This document shows, in pieces, positions 1 to 23,182 of a stretch of 32,000 nucleotides of DNA. The position numbers and the translations under genes are program-made. The notes beneath the pieces were generated by a model that did no database searches, was not told the DNA's origin, and worked only from the letters and a program-made list of their open reading frames with translations. Positions within the stretch are counted from its first letter, which is position 1. Each line of letters begins with the position of its first letter. Origin of the DNA: Halogeometricum borinquense DSM 11551 (GTDB lineage: Archaea; Halobacteriota; Halobacteria; Halobacteriales; Haloferacaceae); the NCBI RefSeq assembly GCF_000172995.2, contig NC_014729.1, positions 2,760,001 to 2,792,000 of the forward strand, written 5' to 3'.

Positions 1-1689
1 CACGAGTTCTCCGCGTACCTCAAGTACGACAACGCGCTGAGTACGTACTTCGGTCTCGTCTCCCTGTACAAAATGCACGATTTCGAGGAGTACGGCCAAC
101 TTCGCGCTGGCCTCGAATTCGACGACAAGGACTGGAACCTCGAATTCGGCTACAAATCGTGCGGCCTCGCACCACCGGACGACGATACTGACCTCGGGCG
201 ATGGGACTGGCGTCTCGACGATCCGCTCGAATTCCGGATCTACGTCTACCCCAGCGCGTACGATAGTTACCAAGACGCGAAAGACGAGAACCGCCAACGC
301 GTCTACTACCGCGTCTCTCCCCGGTGGTCCGACATGGAGTCGGTAAACGGGAAGTCATTCTCGAACCCGCACGATCTCCTGGGCGTAGACATCGAAGTTG
401 ATGGAAGCTACTTCGAGTTCGATCAGTACGCCGACGTCCTCTACCAAGCACTCGACGTCCTTCGAGATCGGCAACAAGAGTTCGGATGGAATTCCTACAC
501 TGCTATCGACGCAGACGCGTGCCATCCCGAGGAGACTCACGAGTCCTCGAACGTCATCGACGCGGAGTACTACGTGCGCGTGAAGAAAGAACTCACCGGG
601 AAGGTCTACGCGTTCGACGGGACGCTTCACCGTATTTCGATGCTTCTCGGCCGCGAGCGCAGCGGCTACTCGAAGACAGTCCGTGACGACCGGAAGTGCG
701 AAGGGCACTATCACACGGCCACAATAGGCGCGATGCGCGCGGCCGCGTTGGTCGGCGGTCACGAACTCCCGAAGGAGTTCAAGCACTACCACGTCAAGGA
801 ACCCGACGCTGTCGAAGGAACGGTTCTCGAGAACCCGAAAATGGGCGTGTCCTTCCAGCACGGCCTCTATGATGACACGCTGTACTGGGACGATCTCGAC
901 CGGCTGAAGCGAGAACTTGACGAGGGACTGTTGAACCTGCTTCAGTGGTCAGACCTGCCGATTACTCCGGACCACCAAGTGTTCGTGGCGGATGATTACT
1001 TCGCCGTAGAGGGCAGTCGGCGGTTCCGGAAGGTGATCGATGATCCGCTTCCGCGGATTGCTCAGCAGCAGGACGAAGAAGTGCGGCGCTTCGCTGTCGC
1101 TGGGAATCTCACGGAGACCGACGTCAACCTCGTTGATGAACTCCTGACTGACGGGGGGCACATCTCGCCTGCCGATCTCGCCGAACGGATCGGCGTCCAC
1201 ATCAACACCTGCTACAAGTCGCTGAAGCGACTGGGGAACATCGTCCAGCATGATTACGGGTCGGTCGAACTCGCCTCGAAGCACATCGCGCAGGGAGTCG
1301 TCGAACATATCGACTCCGCGCGGTCTGTCGTCGAGAACACGCTCGAGGAAGCGGCCGACGATCTCGTGCGTGCAGAGACGTTCGGTGACGATGATCCGTG
1401 GAGCCGGTGGCTCGATCACTACGTCGAAGACGTTGAAGAGGGAGCGGGAAGCGGGAACCGCGACGTTCTGGAGTTCGGGTGGAAGCCGAGTGACCGACAC
1501 GACGCGAAGCGACTCATCCGCGCGGGCGCGATGAAGTGGGCGGAAGTCGCGGGTGAGGATATGCCGCGATTTGCGAGGGAGTTTGAGGTTGAAATGACGC
1601 TCGCGGATAACTCACGGTTCAACCTCGACTGGAGAGCCTTGAAGAAACTCCTGCCACGGAACTACTCGCTGACGCCGTCGCACGGCTGA
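1..1689 (+). CDS. Hypothetical acidic protein, 5'-truncated by the window edge, with an HTH-like C-terminal segment. It may be the element's replication or regulatory protein.
   Basis: Frame 1 is open from nt 1 (HEFSAYLKYDNALSTYF...) into the listed ORF 73..1689. Composition is D/E-rich and halophile-like. There is an HTH-like stretch ISPADLAERIGVHINTCYKSLKRLG. Long antisense ORFs are Arg-rich artefacts. Confidence 0.75.
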   Translation, partial: HEFSAYLKYDNALSTYFGLVSLYKMHDFEEYGQLRAGLEFDDKDWNLEFGYKSCGLAPPDDDTDLGRWDWRLDDPLEFRIYVYPSAYDSYQDAKDENRQRVYYRVSPRWSDMESVNGKSFSNPHDLLGVDIEVDGSYFEFDQYADVLYQALDVLRDRQQEFGWNSYTAIDADACHPEETHESSNVIDAEYYVRVKKELTGKVYAFDGTLHRISMLLGRERSGYSKTVRDDRKCEGHYHTATIGAMRAAALVGGHELPKEFKHYHVKEPDAVEGTVLENPKMGVSFQHGLYDDTLYWDDLDRLKRELDEGLLNLLQWSDLPITPDHQVFVADDYFAVEGSRRFRKVIDDPLPRIAQQQDEEVRRFAVAGNLTETDVNLVDELLTDGGHISPADLAERIGVHINTCYKSLKRLGNIVQHDYGSVELASKHIAQGVVEHIDSARSVVENTLEEAADDLVRAETFGDDDPWSRWLDHYVEDVEEGAGSGNRDVLEFGWKPSDRHDAKRLIRAGAMKWAEVAGEDMPRFAREFEVEMTLADNSRFNLDWRALKKLLPRNYSLTPSHG

Positions 1690-1727
1690 GGCGGGGCCTC
1701 GTGAGTGGCAACACTATTCGTCGCCTG

Positions 1728-1732
1728 TTTTT
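1728..1732 (+). terminator. Oligo-T tract downstream of the 1..1689 CDS
   Basis: A TTTTT run lies 39 nt after the stop, followed by a second T4 run. Archaeal terminators are typically oligo-T. Confidence 0.35.
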
Positions 1733-2478
1733 GCGGTAATCATTTCTGCTTTTCTGCCGGTTCTGGTACTTGGCTGGAGGTTCTTGATCGGCATCGTCAT
1801 CGAGGCCGACGAGCGACTGCCTTCGAAACTGGCGGGGGTACCCCACTTGTCCGTTAGGGGTGTCGGTAAAGACCGACACGGACAGATTACCTCAGCCTTC
1901 GCTTCGCTCAGGCTTCAGATGAAACAGACGAAGCATGGTCGCCGCGCCTACTCGGCGCGGCTTGGCGCGTATTAGATGTAGTGTGAGCCGCCGTTTCCTT
2001 CTACTTGTCAATTATAGCTTATCTATGTAGAGAGAAGATACTCCTCACTGTTGAGGTAATCACTTGGGTGAAGGAGCGACAATTGATTGGTCCAAGTTCA
2101 GAGTACACGGGAAGTCTCCCAGGACATTTTCGTTCTCGTTTAACTCAGGAGAATCTAGTCTATCATATCCATACTATAATATATATAGATGACAAATATT
2201 GTCGGGAGGTATGCCAACGAGATTGTTGTCGTTTTTTGGATCTTATGACTTTTTAGCTAAGACCTTGCCCGGAATTGCATTCGTTGCAGGAATATTTCCA
2301 TTATGTTGAATTAACCCCCGACGTATCTGCTGAGCCGCCAAGAGTTTCATTGCTTTGGAGGCCACATAACCAAGGGTCTTCCACCGGATCTTCGAGGGGG
2401 TGAGTTTCCCGCTGGCAGTGTTCGCCTTCAGTCACAGCACGGTGACAAAGAAGACCGAACTGGCGTCAAAATACGATG

Positions 2479-2901
2479 TTAGAAGCTGATGCCGTACTCG
2501 TTCTTTTTTGCGAACTCAATGAGGTTAATGCACATCTCAATCGTTCGATCTTTTCCTTCAGAGAGATCTCCATCGCGCTGCAAGTTTTCGCGGGCGGTTT
2601 CGAGCGATTGGATGAACAGATCGAGGCCTTCCGGATCACGAACGACATGGTCATCATCTTCGTATTTGTATTGGATTTCCTGCATCGAGGGTTCGCCAGC
2701 GTCTACGACTGACGTTGTCGGCTTTTCATAGATCATAAATGTCCCATCTTGTTGCAGATCATTCTTGAAGTACTGATACGGTGGTAGATCTGCTAGAGTG
2801 TCGTCGTATTTTGAGTTCTCCACGTGGTACTGGTAGACCGTTTTTCCTGTTTCGAGTGTCTGTTCCTCATTGGGAACGACTAGTAGAAATGTAGCACCCA
2901 T
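2479..2901 (-). CDS. Hypothetical acidic 140-aa protein; candidate immunity partner of the upstream DUF4157 toxin-like gene
   Basis: It starts 6 nt after the toxin stop on the same strand and shares the same AT-richer composition. It has no signal peptide or TM segment. Its position and size are typical of polymorphic-toxin immunity genes. Confidence 0.6.
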   Translation of the reverse strand: MGATFLLVVPNEEQTLETGKTVYQYHVENSKYDDTLADLPPYQYFKNDLQQDGTFMIYEKPTTSVVDAGEPSMQEIQYKYEDDDHVVRDPEGLDLFIQSLETARENLQRDGDLSEGKDRTIEMCINLIEFAKKNEYGISF

Positions 2902-2907
2902 ACGTTC

Positions 2908-4452
2908 TCACCACGGCCTCACATCATGAGCAATGTTGTACATCAACTTAAGTTCCTCAGAGGTCCACTTGTACGTTTCAACGTGGGTGCTTTCTTCATG
3001 GCTGTCGTCCATCCCCTTTGGGACTATTGTACACGCCTCAGCATTCCCAAAGTCTTCCTCTGATAGGTCGTTAATGCAGTCGTTTAATCGATCAATGTTT
3101 TCGATTTTAGGTTTGCCAGTCTCACCCCGTGGAATCCCGTAATCTATGTCCTTGAGTGCACGTTTCGCTTGTTTAGTTGCCTTACTCGCATAATCATCGT
3201 CAGTTGAACCAACTTTTTCTTCGACCACCTTCACAACCTCTCCCGACTTTTTGTCCACGATTAGTTTATCGAATTCCGGATTTCTACTGGAATTCACTTG
3301 GACTCCTTTGACCATGGAGTCGTGGCCGGGAACCACGGCAAGTTCGCCTCTCTCGTCGGAGTCCTCAACGAAGCTTTCGACGAGATTTTTCTCAGGGTGC
3401 GACGAAAGGACCTCTCCTACATCTCCTTCACTGGCCCCAAGATCCTTCGGAGAGTCACCGATTCTCCAGAGGTCCTCGAAAAACTCATCATATTTGTCGT
3501 CGTCTACGGTCTGTTCTAACTCAGCGAGTAACTCGTCACTCAATCCCATCTCTTTGAGCGCCACCAGTGGTGACGCCACAGTATCCCGATCAGGGAGGTT
3601 GTTCCAGCGGGGCATCCGCTGAACGTGCACGTCTGAGTGCTCCATGCGATGCACGCCAATCTTTCCGCCTTGCATCACGCGCTGAGCGGTTTCTTCGGCT
3701 TCCCGTTCCAAGCGTGGGTCAGGATCAATCTCTAACTCGCCTGCTTGGGGAAGCATCGACACCGCGCCACCAGTCTGCTGGCGCACGTGCGCGAGTTCGT
3801 GGGCGAGAATATGCTGACCTTCAGCACTCGATGGATCGTATTCGCCGTGGTTGAACGCGATGTGATTCCCGACGGTAAACGCGCGGGCGTTGATATCCTC
3901 GCAAGCTTTCGCGGCCGATGGACCCGTATGGATGCGTACATCGCCCAGATTGTCGCCCATCCGATCTTCCATCGCACGCTGGATGCTCGTGTCGAGTTGC
4001 TGGCCCGGCGAGGAAATCACGTCTCGTACGGAGTCAGGCACGTTCGTGTCGCCAGCTTTCGACGCCTCGTGGTGCGCGCCGCGACTACGCTGGACAGATT
4101 TAGCGTTCCGGCGTTCGATGTCCTTTGGGACTTCTGCGGGGCGTTCTTTCTGACGCTGGCGGAACGCGCGCATGTCGCGTGGCTTGCCCATCGTATCGAC
4201 GGTCATGCCTTCGTCGGCCCATTCTCGGACTTGGTCTGCGCCGTGTTTCTTGGCCAGTCGCTGAATCTTCGTATCCAGCCCGTCCATGTATATTTCGACG
4301 CCGAATCGTGATTCACACTCTTGGGGCGTTAGCGGACCACCGCCACCACGACTCCGAGTCCGATTCAAGCCTCCCGTCAACTCTTGAATAGACGGAACGG
4401 ACGAGGATCGATCACCCTCACGGGCCCGTTCCTCTGTAGATCGAAATTCCAT
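2908..4452 (-). CDS. DUF4157 (zincin-like HExxH) domain protein with a divergent C-terminal domain; polymorphic-toxin-like effector
   Basis: The stretch LGDVRIHTGPSAAKACEDINARAFTVGNHIAFNHGEYDPSSAEGQHILAHELAHVRQQ matches the DUF4157 signature (VRIHt..A..a...A.AfT.G..I.F....y.P....G..LLAHELtHVvQQ). The C-terminal 230 aa are unrelated to this domain. A TATA-like TTATAT lies about 30 nt upstream. Confidence 0.9.
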   Translation of the reverse strand: MEFRSTEERAREGDRSSSVPSIQELTGGLNRTRSRGGGGPLTPQECESRFGVEIYMDGLDTKIQRLAKKHGADQVREWADEGMTVDTMGKPRDMRAFRQRQKERPAEVPKDIERRNAKSVQRSRGAHHEASKAGDTNVPDSVRDVISSPGQQLDTSIQRAMEDRMGDNLGDVRIHTGPSAAKACEDINARAFTVGNHIAFNHGEYDPSSAEGQHILAHELAHVRQQTGGAVSMLPQAGELEIDPDPRLEREAEETAQRVMQGGKIGVHRMEHSDVHVQRMPRWNNLPDRDTVASPLVALKEMGLSDELLAELEQTVDDDKYDEFFEDLWRIGDSPKDLGASEGDVGEVLSSHPEKNLVESFVEDSDERGELAVVPGHDSMVKGVQVNSSRNPEFDKLIVDKKSGEVVKVVEEKVGSTDDDYASKATKQAKRALKDIDYGIPRGETGKPKIENIDRLNDCINDLSEEDFGNAEACTIVPKGMDDSHEESTHVETYKWTSEELKLMYNIAHDVRPW

Positions 4453-4542
4453 CTTTCTACCTGATTGACAGCAACCCCATATAATTCCTCTCCGTTCGAG
4501 ACCGAACGTTTCTGTACGGACGAGGACAGTGCGTGAGCGCCG

Positions 4543-4926
4543 TTAGAACAGCGCAGAGAGAACGGCGAGGTCGTCGGCCGACGGCCACGTGTAGAGCGCC
4601 CACGCGCCGAACACGTAGGTCATGAGCGGGACTTCGAGGCCGAACGCCCACGGGACCACGAACGGCGTGAGGAGTGCCCCGACCATCGTCGGCGCGAGGT
4701 TCGCAACGACGACGACGACCACGGGCGTCCCAGCGGGGTAGTTGAGTTCGAGACGCGGTGGAACGAGTCGATCGACGAGATCCAACGGGCGGGTTGCCTC
4801 GATCCACGGCCACGCCACCGCAGCATGCGTGAGTTCGTGCGCGAGTACTGCGGGGAACATAACGAGCGCCCCGAGGAGATCGACGAGGCCGACATTCTCT
4901 GAATCCGTATCAGAGGTCGTCGTCAT
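4543..4926 (-). CDS. Small polytopic membrane protein with an HExxH motif (putative membrane-embedded zinc metallopeptidase); last gene of the long operon
   Basis: AHELTHAAV sits at the edge of a hydrophobic helix and there are about 4 TM segments. I chose the start at ATG 4926 because it overlaps the upstream stop (ATGA) and GGAGGTG lies 10 nt upstream. The track ORF extends to 4953. Confidence 0.7.
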   Translation of the reverse strand: MTTTSDTDSENVGLVDLLGALVMFPAVLAHELTHAAVAWPWIEATRPLDLVDRLVPPRLELNYPAGTPVVVVVVANLAPTMVGALLTPFVVPWAFGLEVPLMTYVFGAWALYTWPSADDLAVLSALF

Positions 4927-5282: not shown

Positions 5283-5659
5283 CGCGGACGCACCCCCGAA
5301 CGCCCGGTGAACATGTAGATCACAAATAGACCCATTGACCACGTGAGTGGCGACGCGATCATAACCGCACCCCACGACGGAAGGCCCGCATTGACGAGCA
5401 TATCCGCTAAGGCGTATATCAATACGAACGACGAAACGACCTCGTCAGTACCGGAGATCGTCGCGCCGATAAACGAGGTATCGCTCGAGCCACGACTCGC
5501 TGAGTAGTCCTTGAGATCGCCTTTGCTCTGCGCGACGTCGTCTTGAACGCCCGTGTCCGGTTGCATCCCGAGCCAGTCAGCAGTTCCCGAGGCAGTCATG
5601 GCCCCACCGACGCCCGCTACGCAAACGATGAACAGGAGGATCGTCGCCGGGTGTCTCAT
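5279..5659 (-). CDS. Small secreted/membrane-anchored protein (126 aa)
   Basis: The N-terminal signal-like segment is MRHPATILLFIVCVAGVGGAMTASG, and there are C-terminal TM helices plus a GRSGVRPR tail. ATG 5659 overlaps the upstream stop (ATGA), with GGAGGTG 7 nt upstream. The N-terminal extension of the track ORF is Arg-rich junk. Confidence 0.7.
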   Translation of the reverse strand: MRHPATILLFIVCVAGVGGAMTASGTADWLGMQPDTGVQDDVAQSKGDLKDYSASRGSSDTSFIGATISGTDEVVSSFVLIYALADMLVNAGLPSWGAVMIASPLTWSMGLFVIYMFTGRSGVRPR

Positions 5660-8600
5660 CGCCGACCACCTCCGCCAACGGCCATAGCGACTGCGACGAG
5701 TCCAGCAAACACGACCACCCCGCCGCTCGCGGTGTACCACCCGAGCCACCACATGACCGCGGCAACTCCGGTAACCGCAAGGGAGCCGATCGACGAGAGG
5801 CGACCACCGAACAGCATCCCCACGAACAGGAACAGGCAGGTGAGGATCACAGGCGTCCACTTCGGGCCTATCGGGTTCTCGATGACGTACCGCTTGCCGT
5901 CTGCGAGGTCATTCGAACTCTCGATTACTGTGTTCGACGAGTTGTAAGCGTACCACGTGACCTCCCAATCCGTTTCGGTGAGATTACCAGAGACGGTCTT
6001 GTTGAGGCTGAACGTTCCGTATCCTTCCGTGTACGTGCTGTTCATGATCTCGTTGCTTGAGTTGTTCGCCGCGTGGATGATGACGCGGAGCTTGCTCGTG
6101 TTCTGTGTTGGATCATGGTATTGGAAGTGCACGACGCCGTTCGGTTCCTCGTTGCCGTCGGTGAGGTCGATGTACGCGGCAGAGTGTCTGATCGCCTGCG
6201 TGTTGTCCTCGACTTTCCACGATACCTGGCCGACGTTGAGAGTAACAGTTCCCTTTCGCGTCGCCGTGTAGGCACCGAGCACGCGGCTTGAGTTATGTTC
6301 GCCGACGATACGAATCCGGTATCGACGATCCTTCTCAAGGGTTGCCTCGAAGCGTCCCTCGGCTCCGAAGAAGTCTCCGGAGACCGTGACCCACTCAAGG
6401 CCGCTCGACGTGTTCACCGCGCGCTCGATGTAGAGTTTTGCTCGTTCGTTGGATCCGGAGAACTCACCAGTGAGGTCGTTGAGGACGAACTCGGTGTAGT
6501 AGGCCGTCTTGCTGTCGTTAAGGAGATAGACCGAATCTTGCTCATAGAGTGACGTGATGATCACTGTGCGACGGTTGTGACCGTCCGCCTCGAGGACGAG
6601 GACGTAGGTCCGATCGACTGGCAGATCCGTGAGATTGAGCTTGCCGTTCTCTGTCGATCGCTCAAAGACGAGTTCCCCGGAGAAGAACCGTCCAGTGACG
6701 GTGACATTCGTCCCGTTGATCAACTCCTTGGGTTGGTTGACCGGGCGGATGTAGAGCGTCGATGGGACGAGATAGGTCTTATTCGCCGAGGTCGCGTCAG
6801 GGTTGCTCGAATTTCCCGAACCGTACTCGTCGTAGACGCGCACGTACCAGGAGTGATTGCCTCCGCCGACGTCGGTGATTGTCGTTGACGCCGTCCCGTT
6901 CGCCGAGAGCGTGTCAGTCCCAACGACCTCGCTATCGACGACGAACTCGGCTGTGACGGTGTCGCCGTCGAGCTGGAAGTCCCGGTCGGAGACGTTGACC
7001 GAGAGGGTAACGTCCTTGCTCGTCAACTTCGCCCCGTCCTCCGGGCTCATGCTTGAGGAGTTGACCGTCGGCTCGTAGTGGTCGATCTCCCAGGTGAACG
7101 AGTCCGACTCGGAGGTGAGGCCGTACTCGTCGGTCATCTCGACGTGCCACGTGTGGTTGCCGTCCTCGAGCGGGCCGACGTCGAACGTCACCGTCCCGTT
7201 CTTCGTGACGTTCTTGCTGCCGGCGACGGCGCCGTCGAGCACGAGATCGACCTTGACCTCGTCGCCGCTCGGCTCCGCAAAGTCCCGGTCGGAGACGTCG
7301 ATCGAGATCGTCTCGTTCGCGTATCTCGAGGTCGAACCGTCCGGGCTCGCCGAGCTGTTGTCGACGTCCGCCGCGTAGTGGTTGACCGTAAAGTTCCACG
7401 TCGACGACGTCGTCGCCTCCCCATACTCGTCGGTCGTCTCGACGTGCCACGTGTGGTTGCCGTCCTCGAGCTCGGTTACGGTCGTCGAGACGGTCTGGTT
7501 CGACGTGATCGTTTGTGTGTCGACGATCTCACCGTCGAGATAAACGTCGACGGTGACCGAGTCGCCTTGTGGTGTCGAAAAGTCCGAGTCGGAGATCGGG
7601 ACCGAGAGCGTTACATCCTCGTTGTTGGTGTCGCTCCCGCCGCTTGGAGCCGCCTCAGCTCCGTCTATCGACGGCGCTCGAGGTTGGAACCAAACGCCCT
7701 CGTCATGGATCTCGGCGACCGTCCCCGCCGGTTCGTCGTCGAAGACGACCTTCGTCCGCCACATCTCGTAGCTGGTGTTCCCGAGGTCAAGCGTGTAGTT
7801 CCCCGTCGACGAGTAGGTCGAGCTCTCGACGTCCGTCCAAGACGACGTCGAGGAGTCGTAGGCCTGGATTGTGACCGTCGCGCTCGCGTTCTGGAGCGTG
7901 AGGTCCGCCCACGCCTTCTTTGCGTTCCCAACGTCGTGAGGCTGCGAGATGTACGTCCCGCTGGACTTCTCACCGTTGAGATCGATCGCGTCGAAGTATT
8001 GGGCGTTGTGTTTCCACGCCTCCATCATGATACCGCCGGATTTGACCGTCTCATTGGAATCCGTCGCGGAGAGGGACGCGACGACGTTCCCGGCTTCGTC
8101 GTAGACCGTATAGTTCAGCTCGCCGTTCTCACCCCACTCAATTTTTCCACGGACCCACTCGCCCGAGGGAGTCCCAATATCCTTGTCGCGTAGGGTCGTG
8201 GACGTCCCATTGACGACCTTGATGATTCGGATGTCTTGAACGGTGTAGCCGTGCCTGACCCGATAATAGTTATTCGAGTCCTTCCCGAAATTGAACGCCC
8301 ACCCACCGCCAGAACCATCGTGGTAGGTGCGGAACGAGATCGTGTCGCCCGCGGACGGGTACTTCGGTAGCCCACTCGTCGAAACGAGATCCTCATCGAC
8401 GCTTGGGTCCATCTCGACCGCGTAGTCTCCGCTCCAGACCATCGAGGACTGAACGGTGTCGCCTGTCGTTTGCGTGTATTCGGACAGATCACCGTCCTCG
8501 AAGCCGTCTACGGTCTGGTTTAGCTGTCCTTCCAGCGCCACGGACGCCGACGTGCCGGACCCTTCGACGGAGACGTTCGTGAGCTCGGTCGCGTCGTTGA

Positions 8601-8751
8601 AGTCGCTCGCCGTGGTGTGGGAGCTCCCGACCGCAAGATCGCCGCTACTTGCCGCCGCAACCGGCGCGGTGCTCACGACGAGGTAGGTCGCGAACAGCGC
8701 GAACGCGACGATCGCCGGTCGGCGAGCGTCCTCGAGGCGGTCGCGGATCAC
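5656..8751 (-). CDS. Large secreted protein rich in N-glycosylation sequons, with a C-terminal TM anchor; spike/adhesin-like envelope glycoprotein candidate
   Basis: Signal peptide RRPAIVAFALFATYLVVSTAPVAAASS. More than 30 N-x-S/T sequons. LamG/ConA-like N-terminal region, then three 100-aa beta-sandwich-like repeats. C-terminal TM helices end in VGGGGRR. The probable start is GTG 8751 (GTGA overlap with the upstream stop, GGGGGTG 7 nt upstream). The track start is 8805. Confidence 0.9.
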   Translation of the reverse strand: MIRDRLEDARRPAIVAFALFATYLVVSTAPVAAASSGDLAVGSSHTTASDFNDATELTNVSVEGSGTSASVALEGQLNQTVDGFEDGDLSEYTQTTGDTVQSSMVWSGDYAVEMDPSVDEDLVSTSGLPKYPSAGDTISFRTYHDGSGGGWAFNFGKDSNNYYRVRHGYTVQDIRIIKVVNGTSTTLRDKDIGTPSGEWVRGKIEWGENGELNYTVYDEAGNVVASLSATDSNETVKSGGIMMEAWKHNAQYFDAIDLNGEKSSGTYISQPHDVGNAKKAWADLTLQNASATVTIQAYDSSTSSWTDVESSTYSSTGNYTLDLGNTSYEMWRTKVVFDDEPAGTVAEIHDEGVWFQPRAPSIDGAEAAPSGGSDTNNEDVTLSVPISDSDFSTPQGDSVTVDVYLDGEIVDTQTITSNQTVSTTVTELEDGNHTWHVETTDEYGEATTSSTWNFTVNHYAADVDNSSASPDGSTSRYANETISIDVSDRDFAEPSGDEVKVDLVLDGAVAGSKNVTKNGTVTFDVGPLEDGNHTWHVEMTDEYGLTSESDSFTWEIDHYEPTVNSSSMSPEDGAKLTSKDVTLSVNVSDRDFQLDGDTVTAEFVVDSEVVGTDTLSANGTASTTITDVGGGNHSWYVRVYDEYGSGNSSNPDATSANKTYLVPSTLYIRPVNQPKELINGTNVTVTGRFFSGELVFERSTENGKLNLTDLPVDRTYVLVLEADGHNRRTVIITSLYEQDSVYLLNDSKTAYYTEFVLNDLTGEFSGSNERAKLYIERAVNTSSGLEWVTVSGDFFGAEGRFEATLEKDRRYRIRIVGEHNSSRVLGAYTATRKGTVTLNVGQVSWKVEDNTQAIRHSAAYIDLTDGNEEPNGVVHFQYHDPTQNTSKLRVIIHAANNSSNEIMNSTYTEGYGTFSLNKTVSGNLTETDWEVTWYAYNSSNTVIESSNDLADGKRYVIENPIGPKWTPVILTCLFLFVGMLFGGRLSSIGSLAVTGVAAVMWWLGWYTASGGVVVFAGLVAVAMAVGGGGRR
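6766..7659 (-). repeat. Three tandem 300-nt (100-aa) domain repeats inside the glycoprotein gene
   Basis: Repeat landmarks LEDGNHTWHVETTDEYG, LEDGNHTWHVEMTDEYG and VGGGNHSWYVRVYDEYG are spaced exactly 100 aa apart. Each is preceded by (D/S)VSDRDF-like strands. Confidence 0.85.
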
Positions 8752-9041
8752 CGCGGACCACCCCCACGGAACGATCCCTTGCCCGCGACGACGGCGTAAA
8801 GCCACGCCACGATCCCGATCATAAGGAACGTGGGAGCGATCACGAGCCCGACATCGAGCGTGAAACTCAGGTTGTCGTCAAGGCCCTCCTCCTCGATCGC
8901 GCCGTTGTCAGCTTTCTTGACGGCGTCAGCGGTCCCATCAATCGTCGGGATCCCCACGACGACGAAGATACCACCGAGGAACAGGAGGAGCACCACGATC
9001 ACGAACGCGGAGAGATAGGACCCTCGGCTCTGTCGTCGCAT
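8748..9041 (-). CDS. Small 2-TM membrane protein (97 aa)
   Basis: Two hydrophobic helices flank an acidic loop, and the tail is FRGGGPR. ATG 9041 has GGAGGT 8 nt upstream, inside the end of the preceding gene. Confidence 0.75.
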   Translation of the reverse strand: MRRQSRGSYLSAFVIVVLLLFLGGIFVVVGIPTIDGTADAVKKADNGAIEEEGLDDNLSFTLDVGLVIAPTFLMIGIVAWLYAVVAGKGSFRGGGPR

Positions 9042-9044
9042 GAG

Positions 9045-9341
9045 TTAGAACCTCCGTCCAGTTTCGTTGATGGAGCGCCGAAACGAGATCAGTAAGGCTG
9101 CGAGTGCCGCTCCCCACAACGGCCAATACTCCCACAGGAGCCGATACCGTCGAACCGTCTCCTCGCCCCGGCTTGAATCGGCCATGCTGTTGCTCATGTT
9201 GAACAGCATGTGCTGCGGGCCGTCGAGGAACGACCACAACATAACGGCGAGGAACAGCACGCCGAACAGGAACAGGCCGAACCACGCGAAACTCGCATGG
9301 ACGGTGAGGTTCTCGTCGAGTTCACCGAACCAGTGAGTCAC
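9045..9341 (-). CDS. Small 2-TM membrane protein (98 aa)
   Basis: The GTG start overlaps the upstream stop (GTGA), with GGAGGTG 7 nt upstream. There are two hydrophobic helices. Confidence 0.75.
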   Translation of the reverse strand: MTHWFGELDENLTVHASFAWFGLFLFGVLFLAVMLWSFLDGPQHMLFNMSNSMADSSRGEETVRRYRLLWEYWPLWGAALAALLISFRRSINETGRRF

Positions 9342-12300
9342 CGATGGCCACCTCCGTATCCGGCGTTATCGTCGATGCCCGCAAGCGTCTCCTCGAAGGC
9401 AGCGTTGGCAGAATCGAGAGCGTCGTCAACCGCGGTGGAACGCTCAGCGCTCGCAAGCGTAGCGTCGAGCGCCTCTGTGGCGCTCGCGACGGGATTCACC
9501 CAGTCCTCTCCGTAGCCGACGAGCGGAGCGAACTGATCGATGCGCTCTTGCTCGTCGTCGTTGCTGTCGTCACGTCGGCGGCGATCGTCATCATCCCATG
9601 GACCACGAAGAGGGAGTCCCCCGTCTCCACCTCCACTCCCACCGCTGCTCGACGGAGGATACGACGGGCCACCACCACTGCCATCGCCACCCCCATCGCC
9701 GCCCGGCGGAGGATATGACGGACCCGGACCACCGCCACCGTCGTTACTATCACCGCCTGGCGGGGGATATGACGGGTCAGAGCCACCGCTGCCATCACCA
9801 CCCGACGGTGGATATGACGAGTCAGGACTACCGACACCACCGCTTGGTGGCAAATACCCCGAGCCGGGACCACCACTACCCGATCCACCGTAGGGTGGGA
9901 CGTCCGGCTCGCCACCGGTCGGAGCGCCACCGTAACCGCTCCCGACATCCGGATCAGGATAGCCGAGCGGGACGACGGGGGTAGGATCTGACGCGTCCGC
10001 GCCGTCTTTGTAGGCGTACTGTGAGGCGCGTGCACCGTCAGAATCTGAATCTGTGTCAGGAGACCTATCGGGCCCGTTGTAGGTATTCGTATCCGAGTCG
10101 GCAACTCGTGCTGTCGTGTCAGTATCGACATCGACAGCCCGTCCGGAGGGAAGACCCGCCTGACCTCGGGAGTCTGCGAGGAACGCCTGAGCCTCCTGGG
10201 GGAGATCAACATCGGGGATTTCCGGCGACGGTGGGTTCGGGTTTCTCAAGGTCGTGGTGCCGAACTCGTCTTCGAGATCGCCCCACGATCCGTAGTTTTC
10301 GTCCGGGAGCGACAGATCACCCCACGCGTCTTGCCACGAATCGGCCGCCGCTTTCGTCCCACGAGCCCGCCACCGAGTGATAGGATTGAGCGACTTGCTT
10401 TGCTGTTCGGCCATCCGTTCTGCGATCGTGCCGACGTCAACGACGTCTTTCGACCGCCATGTCTTCGGGGCGATCTCGCCCTCGCCGAACAGCCTCATTC
10501 CCCCTTCGATCTTCGCGTTTACCTGACTCTCAACGGGTTGGATTTTGACACCGTCGGCGGATCGGGTCGGGCCGTGGAGGTCGCCTGACCAATCTTTTTT
10601 CCCACGAGCACGGGAGCGGTCGTTTATATCGACCATGTGATCCCACCCATCCTCGGTCTTGACCTCGATTCCCCCTCGGCGCTGCATGGGACGGTCTTCG
10701 TACTTGCTGAGTATGTCGAAAAGTTCCTTCTGAGCCTTATCGGTATCACCAGTGTAGATGTCTATGTCATCGGGCGTACGGGCCTTCCCCGTCTGCATGA
10801 GTTGTGAGACACTTCCTCCGAGCTCCGAGTCGGTTGTTTTCAGCCACTCAGTGACTTCGGGAGCTGCCTCGTCGGGAATCTGTTGCGCGTTTCGAATCCC
10901 CTTCTCGGCCGTGGTGTCGGTGCCACCACTGACACGATCAACAACGGCATCTGTTCGAGAGCGGTCGCCGAGTCGCTCTGCGATTTCACGTCCTGCCTCG
11001 TATCGTTGCAGATCCGTCCCTTCTAGTTGGTTTCGGAGATTTGTGTCCCATATCGATGTCTCGATGGGCGAGGTTGGGGCAACCCCGCTTGAGTCCGGTC
11101 TCTTTGGAGGCCCTTGGAGATCGACATCCGGCGTTCCCACAGTCGGGCGGTGGTTGGTGACCCCGATTCGAGGAGTCGGGTTCGATCCTGGTAGCTTGGT
11201 TGTAAGGCCGCGGTAGGTCGTGACGTCGCCTCCATCTGGGACCTTCGCCGTCTCTACGCGTACCGGCATCTTTGACCCGATACCGACTTTTGTCGTGAGT
11301 CGCCCCACACCGAACCCAGTCAAGAGACCCAAACCAGCACCACCGACGAACTCAACGGGGCTAGATCGCGCTTCATTGACCATTGCTTCTCCCGCTTCCC
11401 GTCCGAACGCGGTCACGGTTTCACCAACAGCACCCGGCCCGTACTCTTCGACCGCATCGGGAGCGTTCTGTGCGACCTCGATACCCGTCTCGGCAGTTGT
11501 GATGTGCTGCGGAACGTTCAGAAAGTCAACTCCTGCCTTAGCAGCACCTTCGAGCAGTTGTTCCGGGACTCCTTCCTGCGAGTCAGGTACTCCGCCTTCA
11601 TCGGTTTCGATCGTCTTTTTGTAGTCATTAATGTCTTTAGCAACGCTCCTTACCTGCTGTTCTTGATCCTCAGAAAGGAGTCCTCCACTCTTCGTGAGGT
11701 CGTCACTGATATTCGTATTGAATTCAGCGTTGTTGACTGCCTCTCCCGTGTTTTCGGCCGAATTCTCTACACTTTCTTCTACTGCATTTCCAACGTTCGA
11801 GGCAGTCTCACCGACCGTATCCACACCACCACTGACAGAGTTTCCTACGTCACTCACGACGTCCGTGGCGGTATCAGTGGCCGAATCAATGCCACTGTCC
11901 ACGGAGTTGCCAACGTCATTCGTGACGTCAGAGGCAGTATCGGTTACTGTATCAACCCCCTCACCGACAGAATCTCCAACGCCGTTCACGACATCGGAGG
12001 CAGTATCGGTTACCGAGTCGATCCCGTCGTCAACAGAGTTTCCCACATCGTTCCCGATGTCTGAGGCGGTATCGGTGACTGAGTCGATACCATCGTCAAC
12101 AGAGCTGCCTACATCGTTTCCAATGTCTGAGGCGGTGTCGGTAACTGTGTCAACACCGGACTCCACCGCACTCCCAACATCGTCGAAGAATCCGCCACTG
12201 TCGCTGGACGATGAACTCGAGGAGGTTGGCGAGTCCAAGGACGAACCAGAGTGGTCTCGCCCCGCCTCTTGCGATGACCCTGACGAGCCGCCGATCCCGA

Positions 12301-12523
12301 CCGAGTCGGTCACGGAGTCAGCAGCGTCCGAGACGGTGTCGGTGATGCCGTCCCAGAACCCGCCACCGCCGCCCGAGTCGTTCGACGAGGACGAAGAGTG
12401 GGACGATCCCGAGGACCCCGACGAGCCGCTGCTCGAGGAACTACTCGACTGAGAGCCCGACGAACTACCGGAATCACCCGATTCGGATCCGGAATAGCCG
12501 GGGATGTTGTCTAAGAATCCCAT
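9338..12523 (-). CDS. Giant (1061 aa) low-complexity/repeat protein with poly-Ser/Gly tracts, 22-aa tandem repeats, a Gly-rich hydrophobic segment, a globular middle region and a Pro/Gly-rich SYPPxGG region
   Basis: A single uninterrupted ORF. The ATG directly abuts the upstream stop (TAGATG). Composition is extremely acidic, S/G/D/T-rich at the N-terminus. See the repeat features and findings. Confidence 0.9.
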   Translation of the reverse strand: MGFLDNIPGYSGSESGDSGSSSGSQSSSSSSSGSSGSSGSSHSSSSSNDSGGGGGFWDGITDTVSDAADSVTDSVGIGGSSGSSQEAGRDHSGSSLDSPTSSSSSSSDSGGFFDDVGSAVESGVDTVTDTASDIGNDVGSSVDDGIDSVTDTASDIGNDVGNSVDDGIDSVTDTASDVVNGVGDSVGEGVDTVTDTASDVTNDVGNSVDSGIDSATDTATDVVSDVGNSVSGGVDTVGETASNVGNAVEESVENSAENTGEAVNNAEFNTNISDDLTKSGGLLSEDQEQQVRSVAKDINDYKKTIETDEGGVPDSQEGVPEQLLEGAAKAGVDFLNVPQHITTAETGIEVAQNAPDAVEEYGPGAVGETVTAFGREAGEAMVNEARSSPVEFVGGAGLGLLTGFGVGRLTTKVGIGSKMPVRVETAKVPDGGDVTTYRGLTTKLPGSNPTPRIGVTNHRPTVGTPDVDLQGPPKRPDSSGVAPTSPIETSIWDTNLRNQLEGTDLQRYEAGREIAERLGDRSRTDAVVDRVSGGTDTTAEKGIRNAQQIPDEAAPEVTEWLKTTDSELGGSVSQLMQTGKARTPDDIDIYTGDTDKAQKELFDILSKYEDRPMQRRGGIEVKTEDGWDHMVDINDRSRARGKKDWSGDLHGPTRSADGVKIQPVESQVNAKIEGGMRLFGEGEIAPKTWRSKDVVDVGTIAERMAEQQSKSLNPITRWRARGTKAAADSWQDAWGDLSLPDENYGSWGDLEDEFGTTTLRNPNPPSPEIPDVDLPQEAQAFLADSRGQAGLPSGRAVDVDTDTTARVADSDTNTYNGPDRSPDTDSDSDGARASQYAYKDGADASDPTPVVPLGYPDPDVGSGYGGAPTGGEPDVPPYGGSGSGGPGSGYLPPSGGVGSPDSSYPPSGGDGSGGSDPSYPPPGGDSNDGGGGPGPSYPPPGGDGGGDGSGGGPSYPPSSSGGSGGGDGGLPLRGPWDDDDRRRRDDSNDDEQERIDQFAPLVGYGEDWVNPVASATEALDATLASAERSTAVDDALDSANAAFEETLAGIDDNAGYGGGHR
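9614..9961 (-). repeat. Pro/Gly-rich degenerate repeats (SYPPxGG-type motif, about 5 copies) near the C-terminus of the giant protein
   Basis: Protein stretch PPYGGSGSGGPGSGYLPPSGGVGSPDSSYPPSGGDGSGGSDPSYPPPGGDSNDGGGGPGPSYPPPGGDGGGDGSGGGPSYPPSSSGG. Confidence 0.8.
11750..12187 (-). repeat. About 6.5 tandem copies of a 66-nt (22-aa = 2 x 11-aa) repeat in the giant protein gene
   Basis: The units are DSVTDTASDIGNDVGSSVDDGI / DSVTDTASDIGNDVGNSVDDGI / DSVTDTASDVVNGVGDSVGEGV / DTVTDTASDVTNDVGNSVDSGI / DSATDTATDVVSDVGNSVSGGV / DTVGETASNVGNAVEESVENSA. The DNA copies are visibly similar but not identical. Confidence 0.9.
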
Positions 12524-17712: not shown

Positions 17713-18891
17713 ATGAGTTCGCACTTAAAAATAGAAGACGTTCACGACGCGATTGAGAACGGCGCTCGGACGAAGAATGAAATCGCCGAGGTCGTTGGTA
17801 AATCGCCCTCGAATACGAACCGCAAACTCAAGGCGTGGGTCGAGAACGAGGACGTCCGCCTGGATCGGCACTGGAACCACGGCGACGGTGGCGGCTACGT
17901 CTACACGATTCCCGCCAAGGACGAGATCGACGATGCGGAGGACCTGCCGATCCTCGGCTCTCGCAACTACGACTGGGACCGGTTCGTTCCCGACACCGAG
18001 GACGTTCCCGTGTACCGGCAGGCCGAGCGCGAACTCGACGAGATCAAGGCCGTCCTCAAGGCGCGCGGCGCGACCGGGCAACTCCCACGGTTCCAGATCT
18101 CCGGTCCGACTGGGTGCGGCAAGACGACCCTCGCCGAGTATCTTGCTGCTGACCGCGGCGCGCCCATGATCACGATTCAATGCAACTACGCGCTCCGCGG
18201 CGCGGAACTCCTCGGAACGCCTCAGATCGTCGGTGGTGACGTCATGTGGGTGGACGGTCCGCTCACTCGTGCCCTCCTCGCCTCACGAGAACGCGAGGTC
18301 CTTGTCCTGATCGACGAGGTCACACGCGCAACCGCGCGGTCGAAAGGAACGCTGTTTCCGGCGCTCGATCACCGCGCCGAGGTCAAGATCAAGCCCCGCG
18401 GCAATGAGTTGATCTCCGGCGTAGCCGAGGACATGATCACAGTCGCCACGATGAACGAAGGGCAGGATTACGAAACGGAGGAGCTTGACGCCGCTGAGGA
18501 GCGTCGTCTCGGACTCAAGTGGGAGCTTCCTTACCTCGGGCAGCACTCGCCCGACCTCGAGGCCGAACTCGTTGCGACCAAGACACCGATGCCGAGTACC
18601 GACGCCCGCGTTCTCGTCGATGCCGCCAACGTCGTACGCGACGCCGCCGAGGACGAGTCGGAGCCCGCGATCACCCGCGGTGTCCCGACTCCTGCGGTGA
18701 TCTCTTGGGCACAAACTGCCTACGCGTTCGCTGAGCGTGGGCTCAACGATCCTGTCGGTCGTGCCATGCAGTCCGCGGTCGTCAAGCCCGTCTACGACGA
18801 GGTCGCGGGTGACGTCGCCGGTAAGATACACTCAGCGTTGAAGCGAGCCGACCATGAGCCCGACCTCGGCCCCGAAGAGGTGACGGCATGA
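17713..18891 (+). CDS. MoxR/CbbQ/GvpN-like AAA+ (AAA_5) ATPase with an N-terminal wHTH-like domain
   Basis: Walker A is ISGPTGCGKTTLAEYL and Walker B is VLVLIDEVTRA. The N-terminal TKNEIAEVVGKSPSNTNRKLKAWVEN is HTH-like. GGAGGT lies 9 nt upstream of the ATG. Confidence 0.9.
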   Translation: MSSHLKIEDVHDAIENGARTKNEIAEVVGKSPSNTNRKLKAWVENEDVRLDRHWNHGDGGGYVYTIPAKDEIDDAEDLPILGSRNYDWDRFVPDTEDVPVYRQAERELDEIKAVLKARGATGQLPRFQISGPTGCGKTTLAEYLAADRGAPMITIQCNYALRGAELLGTPQIVGGDVMWVDGPLTRALLASREREVLVLIDEVTRATARSKGTLFPALDHRAEVKIKPRGNELISGVAEDMITVATMNEGQDYETEELDAAEERRLGLKWELPYLGQHSPDLEAELVATKTPMPSTDARVLVDAANVVRDAAEDESEPAITRGVPTPAVISWAQTAYAFAERGLNDPVGRAMQSAVVKPVYDEVAGDVAGKIHSALKRADHEPDLGPEEVTA

Positions 18892-19073
18892 GCGCGGTCG
18901 TCGCGAGGGCGTTCGCTCGATTCGTCTCTTGGCTTTCTCCTCCGGAGGACGTCGCCGACGAGCTCCCCGCGTGGGACGAGTGCTACAACTGTGGAGGGAC
19001 GATTGAGCCGCCCGAGCGTCCGAGCATGGTCCTCGTCGAGTGTTCAGAGTGCGGCCGTCGAAACATCCGATGA
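18888..19073 (+). CDS. Small zinc-ribbon protein (61 aa)
   Basis: CYNCGG...x17...CSECG gives two CxxC pairs. There is an ATGA overlap with the AAA+ gene. Confidence 0.7.
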   Translation: MSAVVARAFARFVSWLSPPEDVADELPAWDECYNCGGTIEPPERPSMVLVECSECGRRNIR

Positions 19074-19092
19074 ACGAACCGCGACGCCACCG

Positions 19093-19129
19093 CGCACCGG
19101 AGCGGTGCGGTTCGGTGCGCCTCGCACCG
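19093..19129 (+). promoter_or_regulatory. Four-segment alternative-hairpin element upstream of the VWA gene
   Basis: The segments are CGCACCG (19093-19099), CGGTGCG (19103-19109), CGGTGCG (19113-19119) and CGCACCG (19123-19129). Segments 1 and 4 can each pair with either 2 or 3. Confidence 0.4.
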
Positions 19130-19139
19130 TCACGACGCT

Positions 19140-20348
19140 ATGAGTGAGATCGGCGACGTGATCGCGGTGATCCCGCAGCACTACGTTAACGAGGCCGACG
19201 TCTCGTTTACCACCGAATCCCTCGACGTCTCTGGTGTCCTCGTCGATGTCCTCGAGCCCGAGGAGAATGACGGCCGCCGCACTCTGGTTGTTGACAACGA
19301 CGGATCCGAGTACCATCTCGCCGCCCGCGAGCGCATGGCCGCCGACGGACTCACCGAGTGGACACCCGGGCCCGTGCGGACGAGCTCGAGCGTCGAACTC
19401 GGTGAACTCCGCTCAATCGACGTCGATCCACCTGACGAGGATGAGGGTGCTGCCGTCATTGATGACGTCGAGGCGCTCGACAGTGAGGATCTCTCTAGCG
19501 AAATCGGCGAGATAGGAGGGATCCACCGCGGTGGCAAAGCGACCTCAAGGCTCGCTGATCGGCGGAGCGCCCGGAACCACCGCGTCGATAACTACTCTGG
19601 GAGCGCGCCCGCGAGCGACGTTCGCGACGAGCTCCGAGCCGGTGGGACCGCAGCGGCGGTCGTGCGCGAATTCAAACGCCTTGTCGCCGAGGAAATCCGT
19701 GTCACTGATCGCGTCGGTGAGCGGCCGGATGTCCGCAACGTGATCCGGTTCCTTGCGGGTGACGACACCGTTTTCGACGATCTGTGGTCCCGCACCGAGA
19801 CGAACGACACTGGCGACCGCGTCGTCGGAATCGCACTCGACATGAGTGGCAGTATGGGCAACGCCGAGCATGATGCGAAAGCTGCGGTCGGCGCGCTCGC
19901 CCTTGCCGCGAGTGCCGTCGATGACGATGTCGTGATCACCGCGTTCCCCCAGGGAAAGCGTAAGAGTGCGCTCGTCACCGGTCCCTACGAGTCGTGGCGG
20001 TGGCAGCACCTCGATGCCACGGAACCCGGCGGTGGGACGCCCATGCTTCCGGCACTCCGCGACGTTACCCGACTTATGCGTCCACTCAAGGGTCGTGAGC
20101 GCGTGCTGTTTGCGATCACCGATGGCCGGCCGAGTCGCGCCGATAGGGTCGCCGAGCTCGTCGAAGATCTCCGAACCTACGGGACAGCGGTCGTTGGGTT
20201 TGGGTTCGGTCGCGTGAACGAGTCCACGCTCGAAGAGCTATTTGGGAGAGACGGCTACCGGCACGTTGACGTTGAGGATCTCCCGCGGGCGCTCGTCGGT
20301 GCGTACCTGGATCAACTCGAACTCGACGCGACGCTCGACAGGCAGTGA
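19140..20348 (+). CDS. von Willebrand factor A (VWA) domain protein with a complete MIDAS motif, CobT/NorD-like partner of the AAA+ ATPase
   Basis: MIDAS elements are GIALDMSGSMG (DxSxS), GGGTP (Thr) and AITDGRP (Asp). The N-terminal region is about 200 aa and acidic. Confidence 0.9.
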   Translation: MSEIGDVIAVIPQHYVNEADVSFTTESLDVSGVLVDVLEPEENDGRRTLVVDNDGSEYHLAARERMAADGLTEWTPGPVRTSSSVELGELRSIDVDPPDEDEGAAVIDDVEALDSEDLSSEIGEIGGIHRGGKATSRLADRRSARNHRVDNYSGSAPASDVRDELRAGGTAAAVVREFKRLVAEEIRVTDRVGERPDVRNVIRFLAGDDTVFDDLWSRTETNDTGDRVVGIALDMSGSMGNAEHDAKAAVGALALAASAVDDDVVITAFPQGKRKSALVTGPYESWRWQHLDATEPGGGTPMLPALRDVTRLMRPLKGRERVLFAITDGRPSRADRVAELVEDLRTYGTAVVGFGFGRVNESTLEELFGRDGYRHVDVEDLPRALVGAYLDQLELDATLDRQ

Positions 20349-22576: not shown

Positions 22577-23182
22577 ATGCGATTGGAAGCGACCGCGAAA
22601 GAGGATCAGTACAAGATCTGGATGACTGATTCCGAACTCAAACAGTTAGAGCGCGTGGCCGCAAATCAACGCGACTACTTGATCATTCGACTTGGGGGGC
22701 GAGTCGGTCTCCGCGCCTTCGAGATTCCACAGATTTGCCCGAAGCACGTGAAGCGGACCGACGATGGCGAGCACTATCGCCTGCGCGTGCCCGAAGGAAA
22801 GGACACGACCGGGAACGGTGGAAAGCCTCGGGACGCCTATCTGCCGAAAGACGTCGAAGGAGACATACACCGGTTTCAGAACGCCGAGGACATCGGACGG
22901 AATCAGCCACTTGTTGACCTCACTGAGCGCGGTGTTCGCAATGTCGTGAAGCGCACGGCCACCCGTGCAGCTGAAGAGACCGGCGACGAGGACTTTCGAC
23001 ACGTCAGTAGCCACGATCTCCGGCGTCGGTTCGCTCAACGCCTCTTGGTTGACCGGCAGATGAACCCGCGAGTCGTCATGGCTGTTGGCGGGTGGGACTC
23101 CTTTCAGGCAATCGAACCCTACCTCAACGCACCGACGCCCGAGGTCGTCAATCAGGCCTTCGAAGAGGCAGAGCTGTCGTAA
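22577..23182 (+). CDS. Minimal tyrosine recombinase (201 aa, catalytic domain only)
   Basis: Catalytic signature: R in GGRVGLRAFE, K in GGKPRDAYLP, HxxR in SSHDLRRRFA, W in GGWDS and Y in IEPYL. There is no N-terminal SAM-like core-binding domain. Confidence 0.85.
   Translation: MRLEATAKEDQYKIWMTDSELKQLERVAANQRDYLIIRLGGRVGLRAFEIPQICPKHVKRTDDGEHYRLRVPEGKDTTGNGGKPRDAYLPKDVEGDIHRFQNAEDIGRNQPLVDLTERGVRNVVKRTATRAAEETGDEDFRHVSSHDLRRRFAQRLLVDRQMNPRVVMAVGGWDSFQAIEPYLNAPTPEVVNQAFEEAELS

Follow-up and report, generated by a model that had tools for sequence, protein, structure and literature searches.

The window analyzed here, by which we mean the whole stretch of 32,000 nucleotides from Halogeometricum borinquense DSM 11551 (contig NC_014729.1, positions 2,760,001 to 2,792,000), contains two co-oriented genes whose products resemble a polymorphic toxin and its immunity protein (Table 1). 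The product of the first open reading frame (ORF), Hbor_28990, has 514 amino acids (aa) and matches WP_081457879.1 exactly, and the 140-aa product of the adjoining ORF is an exact match to ADQ68437.1 of the same strain. An earlier reading of these letters by a model, made without database searches (the sequence-only reading), had proposed a DUF4157 polymorphic-toxin-like effector with an acidic ORF in the immunity position 6 nt downstream; the gap, at positions 2902-2907, is as described. The original GenBank call for the toxin gene (ADQ68438.1) is shorter than the ORF used here, and the longer start is supported by the conservation of its first 55 residues in Haloferax homologs.

Table 1. Features of the Hbor_28990 locus and its LSV-48N-like neighbors, with positions in the window
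Feature	Position	Strand	Basis	LSV-48N counterpart (identity)
AT-rich spacer traveling with the toxin-domain/immunity module, up to the convergent DUF7845 gene	1690-2478	.	GC, alignments	
Putative immunity gene (140 aa, product ADQ68437.1)	2479-2901	minus	ORF reading	
Putative toxin ORF Hbor_28990, 514 aa	2908-4452	minus	ORF reading; stop codon 2908-2910	
Variable C-terminal putative toxin domain, aa 280-514, orphan family	2911-3615	minus	profile and word-indexed searches	
Putative PD-(D/E)xK nuclease core, aa 343-413	3214-3426	minus	invariant residues	
Conserved N-terminal module, aa 1-279: haloarchaeal leader region and DUF4157	3616-4452	minus	sequence comparison	
35-nt junction/crossover block encoding HRMEHSDVHVQR (aa 268-279)	3617-3651	minus	three-way DNA alignment	
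DUF4157/eCIS_core (PVC-metallopeptidase) zincin-like domain, aa 152-229	3766-3999	minus	Pfam PF13699	
HExxH motif HELAH, H218-E-L-A-H222	3787-3801	minus	translation	
Candidate TATA box AATTATAT	4479-4486	minus	sequence reading; ~30 nt upstream of ATG	
1049-aa Ig-like (Big_13) protein	5656-8805	minus	Pfam, comparison with wsp4	CDS0012 (33-38%)
DUF7845 protein				CDS0026 (67%)
Two small membrane proteins				homologs (34% and 37%)
ATPase				CDS0023 (42%)
Integrase				CDS0030 (61%)

The conserved part of the toxin protein ends at residue 279. Within it the DUF4157 domain, which had been placed at 3763-4020 and is essentially where it was claimed to be, matches Pfam PF13699 (eCIS_core, the renamed DUF4157) over profile positions 1-78 of 79 (E=1.5e-31; 108.8 bits, cut-off 22), and its HExxH motif is invariant in an alignment of five N-terminal sequences. 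The module is 93% identical to that of a paralog at locus L005 (L numbers designate the loci compared) and 80% identical to Haloferax larsenii WP_258303546, encoded beside an AAA ATPase and sheath cluster of a contractile injection system (CIS); it also matches genes beside CIS clusters in Haloferax and Natrinema. At the DNA level it is 94-100% identical to Hbor_07690 of the same strain (L007_561). The latter identification comes from the cloning primers in the supplement of PMC11566945, which encode MGFRSTE... and ...NEVQWQ, matching the ends of the protein. DUF4157 has been described both as the N-terminal marker of toxins of extracellular contractile injection systems (eCIS; PMC8213781) and as a releasing peptidase (PMC3482391). 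Residues 1-279 are presumed to form a module for loading into a CIS, such as a type VI secretion system (T6SS), and for processing.

Evidence that the rest of the pair is an exchangeable unit comes from the junction itself, where the motif (V/I)H(V/I)QR closes the conserved residues. BLASTN alignments of the window to both parts of L005 and of L007, the latter a locus from the draft DSM 11551 assembly, overlap exactly at 3617-3651, a 35-nt block common to the junctions of the main genes and the starts of free-standing toxin-domain ORFs. In a three-way alignment the window follows the main-gene sequence upstream of this block and the orphan-cassette sequence downstream of it. The gene order at L007 is a DUF4157 protein, a 255-aa gene, a free-standing 250-aa ORF and a 142-aa gene. 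That orphan ORF begins with MEHSDVHVQRMPRWNN, corresponding to residue 270 onward of the window protein. ORFs of 248-250 aa carrying the toxin domain alone and starting at MEHSDVHVQRMP are present in L005, L007 and L008, with 250-aa orphans downstream of both Hbor_07690 and the L005 paralog. The aligned block extends well past the two genes, as window positions 1495-3651 align continuously with the Hbor_07690 locus (84%) and positions 1327-3639 with L008 (86%). Gene order across gaps in L006 and L009, whose scaffolded assembly contains stretches of N, was excluded from this evidence.

Base composition changes at the same point. The N-terminal half of the toxin gene (3616-4452) has a guanine-plus-cytosine (GC) content of 0.594, close to the ~0.60 of the flanks, and the C-terminal domain (0.492), the immunity gene (0.463) and the spacer beyond it (0.447-0.494) are AT-richer, so that the break coincides with the domain junction and not with a gene boundary. 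The sequence-only reading had drawn the AT-richer cassette at 1980-4460 and proposed that it was acquired separately; its extent holds for the C-terminal domain, immunity gene and spacer and fails for the N-terminal half, and the idea of acquisition as a cassette gains from the orphan copy behind the paralog and from the 35-nt block. A shared block, a switch of sequence and a GC break at a single point together make up the cassette-displacement architecture of bacterial polymorphic toxins, and the warhead-plus-immunity module was evidently joined to the N-terminal module by homologous recombination within the 35-nt block. Hbor_07690 in the draft assembly also has a 32-residue tandem duplication inside its DUF4157 domain (L007 1-640); it lies at the very start of the contig and may be an assembly artifact.

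The cassette as a whole is likely to carry its own signals. The co-oriented ORF upstream stops at 4543, which leaves the 90 nt of intervening DNA that had been noted before, and the TATA-like element recognized there, AATTATAT, belongs to a pattern, (A/T)ATATAT(G/A)GG, that is invariant in 10 related loci of Halogeometricum and Haloferax, with divergence of the sequence farther upstream. This invariance suggests that the cassette brings its own promoter, for which the element is the candidate, and its position predicts a leaderless or near-leaderless mRNA. Homology to the paralogous loci L005 and L006 ends at about 4493, 41 nt upstream of the toxin ATG, arguing that the cassette is cargo inserted after the last gene of the upstream operon. 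At the far end, a short T-run (2468-2471) after the immunity stop codon is a putative terminator. The cassette plus the 3' end of the DUF7845 gene lies between the arms of an imperfect 29-nt inverted repeat (1363-1391 and 4496-4524, 83% complementary), the right arm of which abuts the end of homology to the paralogous cassettes. As a site of inversion or transposition this repeat was dropped, since its first arm (1363-1391) is not kept in the 95%-identical L005 copy, and it is probably due to chance.

The C-terminal domain belongs to a very small family. Six relatives were found with a three-sequence profile among 1.84 billion representative proteins, two to six with a word-indexed search of 5.8 billion nonredundant proteins, and fewer than 10 family members emerged from two deep rounds of protein searching. 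Two proteins, P0015 and P0028, bear the domain on a non-DUF4157 N-terminus, a further trait of polymorphic toxins. Residues 280-514 gave no match in Pfam, NCBIfam, PHROGs, PADLOC or PDB sequence and profile searches, and comparison of the domain profile by hhalign with an Mrr_cat nuclease and with the alternative warhead of the L005 paralog gave no signal. Across seven members, which share 26-84% identity, 14 residues are invariant. They include a G343-D-x-G-E347-x-L helix, E393-x-D395 (xEFD) and E411-E-K413, with 16 residues from D395 to E411, and among them E347, D395, E411 and K413 follow the canonical order and spacing of the "E, D, ExK" Tox-REase signature listed in PMC3482391. The helix and strand order in an AlphaFold2 (AF2) model is compatible with the alpha-beta-beta-beta-alpha-beta core of the restriction-endonuclease fold but unreliable. 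Judged by its motif, we prefer to read the domain as a PD-(D/E)xK nuclease, with a chance that is roughly even.

The 140-aa family is tied to the C-terminal domain. The protein has seven close homologs, all in H. borinquense, and directly ahead of every family copy examined, no more than about 10 nt away, lies toxin-domain sequence, whether intact, truncated or frame-disrupted. The preceding domain is intact in the window, L005, L007, L008 and L010, and intact from domain residue 22 in L006, which has an assembly gap upstream; it is reduced to its last 24-42 residues in L090, L091 and L092 and frame-disrupted in L093. Identities to the window toxin domain and immunity protein fall together, from 71 and 65% in L005 and L007 through 68 and 55% in L006 to 39-40 and 35% in L010. 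The orphan immunity protein of DSM 11551, 65% identical, is ADQ66364.1. L010 comes from a different haloarchaeon, and its immunity homolog (E=1e-32) is followed by three further paralogs. Co-divergence, partners that outlive decayed toxins and extra stand-alone copies are the signature expected of an immunity gene. The sequence-only reading had made its proposal depend on conservation of the downstream ORF with the toxin, and the comparison returned strict co-occurrence as well as co-divergence. We therefore regard the 140-aa gene as the putative cognate immunity gene, whose product would neutralize the toxin. The protein has no transmembrane segment or signal-like hydrophobic stretch and is predicted to be cytoplasmic. 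Its isoelectric point (pI) of 4.2 bears out the acidity noted earlier, but a low pI is normal for haloarchaeal proteins. An AF2 model is a helical bundle (predicted local distance difference test score, pLDDT, 85) with no structural neighbor in PDB or BFVD, and the sequence has no match in Pfam, NCBIfam, PHROGs or PADLOC and nothing meaningful in PDB sequence and profile searches.

Among species-representative genomes we recovered about 60 haloarchaeal DUF4157 loci, a survey of neighbors that the sequence-only reading had recommended. In 46 complete haloarchaeal proteins the N-terminal regions form one BLAST cluster and the C-terminal regions 24, and in 48 of 66 haloarchaeal relatives the conserved part runs up to a junction motif, [VI]H[VIL]QR, with divergence after it. 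A same-strand ORF follows closely after the stop codon in all 45 proteins for which the downstream gene was compared, lying within -29 to +11 nt in 43. The earlier proposal of a polymorphic-toxin-like effector with a downstream immunity gene is thus strengthened by one N-terminal cluster set against 24 C-terminal ones, by the orphan cassette and by co-divergence, and the architecture of Hbor_28990 supports its classification as a polymorphic toxin. Most downstream partners (35 of the 45) are members of a single ~320-aa family (PF25858, DUF7958) and are paired with Gly/Ala-rich warheads; the Gly/Ala-rich C-termini that precede them fall into 15 BLAST clusters (loci L003, L004 and L013-L074). 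Rather than providing classical cognate immunity, DUF7958 proteins either confer immunity with broad cross-reactivity or have a conserved accessory role. In place of a Gly/Ala-rich sequence the window has a hydrophilic warhead with a nuclease-like motif, which together with its 140-aa partner represents a rare type, found otherwise only at L010 in the 45-protein sample. At 21 of 62 haloarchaeal loci the DUF4157 gene has CIS genes within 10 kb, typically with a divergent AAA ATPase directly adjoining it. In strain wsp4 (L009 10272-11707), past an assembly gap, a Gly-rich warhead-like C-terminus of 157 aa is followed by a DUF7958 protein. This may be a second cassette after the first, and it has no equivalent in the 32-kb window.

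The host of this pair is already known for a relevant delivery system. In DSM 11551 a membrane-anchored CIS, encoded by Hbor_38640-38890 on plasmid pHBOR03, is a functional archaeal T6SS (Zachs et al. 2024, PMC11566945). The DUF4157 proteins Hbor_01880, 02990, 07690, 38720 and 38900 were released only when the sheath was intact, and Hbor_02990, 38740, 38760 and 38900 were toxic in Haloferax volcanii and neutralized by the gene immediately downstream; Hbor_01880, 07690 and 38720 were nontoxic there, and effectors unlinked to the CIS cluster were also reported (PMC11566945). Hbor_28990 is mentioned neither in the text nor in the supplements of that paper, and a wider literature search found no mention of it.

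We consider it probable that Hbor_28990 and ADQ68437.1 are a polymorphic effector-immunity pair of the haloarchaeal CIS, that is, of the archaeal T6SS. The sequences themselves show the gene structure, the domain, the strain, the polymorphic architecture, the orphan cassette with its crossover, the joint inheritance of toxin domain and partner, and the viral flanks. The delivery, toxicity, neutralization, nuclease activity and peptidase processing that we infer for the pair would run as follows. The cassette would be transcribed from its own TATA promoter. The N-terminal 279 residues, including the DUF4157 domain, would target the protein to the T6SS encoded on pHBOR03 and possibly also process it at or near the (V/I)H(V/I)QR junction. 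The C-terminal 235 residues would act as a toxic warhead, most likely a nuclease of the PD-(D/E)xK type working in the cytoplasm of an injected neighbor, and the 140-aa cytoplasmic protein would bind and neutralize the warhead in the producer and its kin. Warhead and immunity gene constitute an exchangeable AT-richer cassette, and the genome has a diverged copy of it downstream of Hbor_07690, where it is a silent orphan.

Several observations weigh against this interpretation. The nine proteins reported as enriched in the secretome of the wild type do not include Hbor_28990, and its paralog Hbor_07690 was, as noted, nontoxic in Hfx. volcanii (PMC11566945). Hbor_28990 may be silent, or peptides of the shared N-terminal region may have been credited to Hbor_07690. 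No CIS gene was found in the 32-kb window when homologs of sheath, tube, DUF4255, AAA and baseplate proteins were sought, so that the link to the T6SS is by homology only. Cleavage by the DUF4157 domain is putative, the nuclease assignment is motif-based, with no match to a hidden Markov model, a PDB sequence or another profile, and the AF2 model of the toxin domain, built from a three-sequence alignment, is unusable (pLDDT 39.8). The surroundings add their own difficulties. The boundaries of the putative provirus described below were not found in the window: it contains neither a tRNA gene nor an att repeat, and direct repeats shared by its left and right parts do not exceed 13 nt. The DUF7845 gene, moreover, has the opposite orientation to its LSV-48N counterpart. 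The cassette may therefore mark the border between two elements instead of lying within a single one.

A provirus-like element nevertheless appears to bear the predicted weapon and antidote as cargo, between two blocks of genes homologous to those of LSV-48N (Table 1). LSV-48N has no DUF4157 gene anywhere, a search of 50,697 phage records (INPHARED) yielded no DUF4157 relative, and IMG/VR holds no relative of the haloarchaeal DUF4157 type; a query with the DUF7845 protein was likewise without a match there. Strain wsp4 has the same provirus and cassette, and its cassette proteins are 99.6-100% identical to those of the window. The 1049-aa Ig-like protein is only 77% identical to its wsp4 copy while neighboring genes are 98-100% identical, and within its gene nucleotide homology breaks down over about 7839-8651. 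The protein thus resembles a hypervariable spike or receptor-binding protein. At several independent loci the toxin cassette adjoins either a DUF7845 gene or a 3' remnant of one, namely L007 (4402-4913), L005 (13669-15282), L006 (3245-5724) and L020 (8514-9227); at the first of these, the Hbor_07690 locus, only a remnant is left, beside host genes. This pattern suggests that cassettes outlive the LSV-like elements that brought them in.

The viral setting invites the explanation that the pair is a killer or addiction module of the provirus, independent of the T6SS, with the toxin released at virus egress or lysis, or acting inside the cell after loss of the element, and killing element-free cells so that the provirus is stabilized. 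The position of the cassette between LSV-48N-like blocks, its apparent own promoter and its absence from the reported T6SS-dependent secretome would all fit, and virus-driven killing of uninfected archaea has a precedent (DeWerff 2020, as cited in PMC12714723). The N-terminal DNA, however, is nearly that of a T6SS-secreted paralog and the module is shared with CIS-adjacent Haloferax genes, at the identities given above, and the virus collections hold no comparable relative. The same module also persists at L007, L010 and L090-L093 without an intact provirus. Nor does the layout resemble a type II toxin-antitoxin system, as the partner is downstream and matches no helix-turn-helix or other DNA-binding family and the toxin is a 514-aa protein with a delivery module. 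We regard this explanation as unlikely. The milder suggestion of the sequence-only reading, that the cassette is a competition module of the mobile element, is plausible and compatible with T6SS delivery.

Silence in the secretome is also what would be seen if the pair were a silent or decaying relic, intact in sequence, neither expressed nor delivered and kept for immunity against the toxins of neighbors. Decay of this kind has evidently occurred elsewhere, since in other strains L090-L093 have a truncated or frame-disrupted toxin half with an intact immunity gene, and L006, across an assembly gap, is without most of the N-terminal module, including the DUF4157 domain. In the window, however, neither ORF is shortened, the promoter element is intact and the same as in the paralogs, and the near-complete identity of the cassette proteins in wsp4 contrasts with the 77% of the neighboring viral gene. 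A relic thus seems improbable.

A more deflationary possibility is that there is no toxin at all, the protein being a DUF4157 metallopeptidase with a housekeeping role or one in viral maturation, followed by an unrelated small gene. Its only recognizable domain is indeed a zincin-like peptidase, and the three nontoxic DUF4157 proteins of this strain would agree with such a role. A housekeeping function would nonetheless fail to explain C-termini that vary so widely past a fixed junction, the existence of orphan cassettes, the compositional break and the multiple stand-alone immunity paralogs, of which L010 has four, and we give this possibility very little weight. The speculation in the sequence-only reading that the toxin is cargo of a lemon-shaped virion or vesicle encoded by the adjacent operon, with which the cassette is co-oriented at a distance of 90 nt, is the least probable of all and is not supported, because LSV-48N has no homolog at that position or elsewhere, homology to the paralogous cassettes ends at about 4493 as expected of an insertion with its own conserved promoter, the operon genes occur at none of the 62 other haloarchaeal DUF4157 loci, and DUF4157 is a recognized marker of CIS cargo (PMC8213781), the N-terminal module matching T6SS-secreted and CIS-adjacent proteins.

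Other features of the window lie outside the pair. A 66-nt tandem repeat (11835-12183, about 4.8 copies with 74% matches) within a 1061-aa gene (9338-12523, minus strand) encodes a 22-residue protein repeat. Cargo-like genes include a MoxR-type AAA_5 ATPase with a VWA-domain partner (17713-20348, plus strand) and a matrixin-like zinc metallopeptidase (24683-25921, minus strand), and two genes belong to the integrase family (22577-23182 and 27903-28931).

Taken with T6SS delivery, the viral setting leads to a broader proposal, which we offer tentatively and as possible rather than probable. An integrated lemon-shaped virus would arm its host with a moron-like T6SS effector-immunity cassette, so that lysogens kill nonlysogenic kin on contact through the plasmid-encoded T6SS while being protected themselves, and the warhead would be the founding member of a new PD-(D/E)xK toxin family, paired with a new immunity fold. 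If true, this would amount to a virus-host mutualism and a route for the horizontal spread of T6SS warheads not yet described in Archaea. Irrespective of that proposal, the arsenal of DSM 11551, the strain in which an archaeal T6SS was demonstrated, gains an unreported intact effector-immunity candidate, and the junction motif and 35-nt block provide sequence-level evidence that archaeal T6SS effectors diversify by cassette displacement of the Rhs/CdiA type. The locus also shows that a cassette of this kind can be carried by a provirus of the newly described LSV-48N type, which links virus carriage to contact-dependent antagonism. We regard as modestly new the carriage by a provirus, the crossover site for warhead exchange in an archaeon and the uncharacterized families themselves, a very small toxin family with a putative catalytic tetrad and a new immunity family. 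For work on the pair, a vector (pWL102et), a sheath mutant (cis2::novR) and Hfx. volcanii as prey already exist.

The closest known systems are the T6SS pairs of H. borinquense itself (Hbor_02990, 38740 and 38900 with their partners), which share with Hbor_28990 the strain, the DUF4157 N-terminal module and a tightly coupled downstream partner. The pair described here differs from them in its chromosomal location, where LSV-48N-like genes and not the pHBOR03 cluster surround it, in being absent from PMC11566945 and in having a partner of the 140-aa family, whereas most relatives sampled use the ~320-aa DUF7958 protein.

Among bacterial polymorphic toxins, the Rhs, CdiA and PVC-metallopeptidase toxins (Zhang et al. 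2012, PMC3482391) likewise combine a conserved delivery region, a short demarcation motif, variable toxins and downstream immunity, and Rhs/CdiA systems likewise have displaced orphan cassettes with a patch of recombination homology and an AT-richer exchanged module. Here, in contrast, the host is archaeal, the motif is (V/I)H(V/I)QR instead of VENN or PxxxxDPxGL, and Hbor_28990 has no Rhs or filamentous-hemagglutinin repeats. Many PVC-type toxins lack an adjacent immunity gene (PMC3482391), whereas an adjacent downstream gene is universal in the haloarchaeal proteins. The eCIS-associated toxins (EATs; Geller et al. 2021, PMC8213781) also have an N-terminal DUF4157 and a C-terminal toxin, and validated EATs include endonuclease warheads. 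EAT genes, however, lie at the 3' end of eCIS operons and their products are loaded into released particles, whereas Hbor_28990 is unlinked to a CIS and the H. borinquense system is membrane-anchored and contact-dependent (PMC11566945).

With Tox-REase and other PD-(D/E)xK toxins the putative warhead shares the invariant E, D and ExK residues, which follow the canonical order and spacing, as well as a predicted cytoplasmic immunity protein. Similarity to a described family, however, was detectable neither in sequence nor by profile, and structural modeling gave nothing reliable. Finally, LSV-48N and its related proviruses (PMC12714723) have homologous flanks, comprising the DUF7845 regulator, the large Ig-like protein, the small membrane proteins, the ATPase and the integrase. 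The relatives described there are in Haloferax (PMC12714723), whereas the element in the window is in Halogeometricum and carries the DUF4157 cassette as additional cargo.

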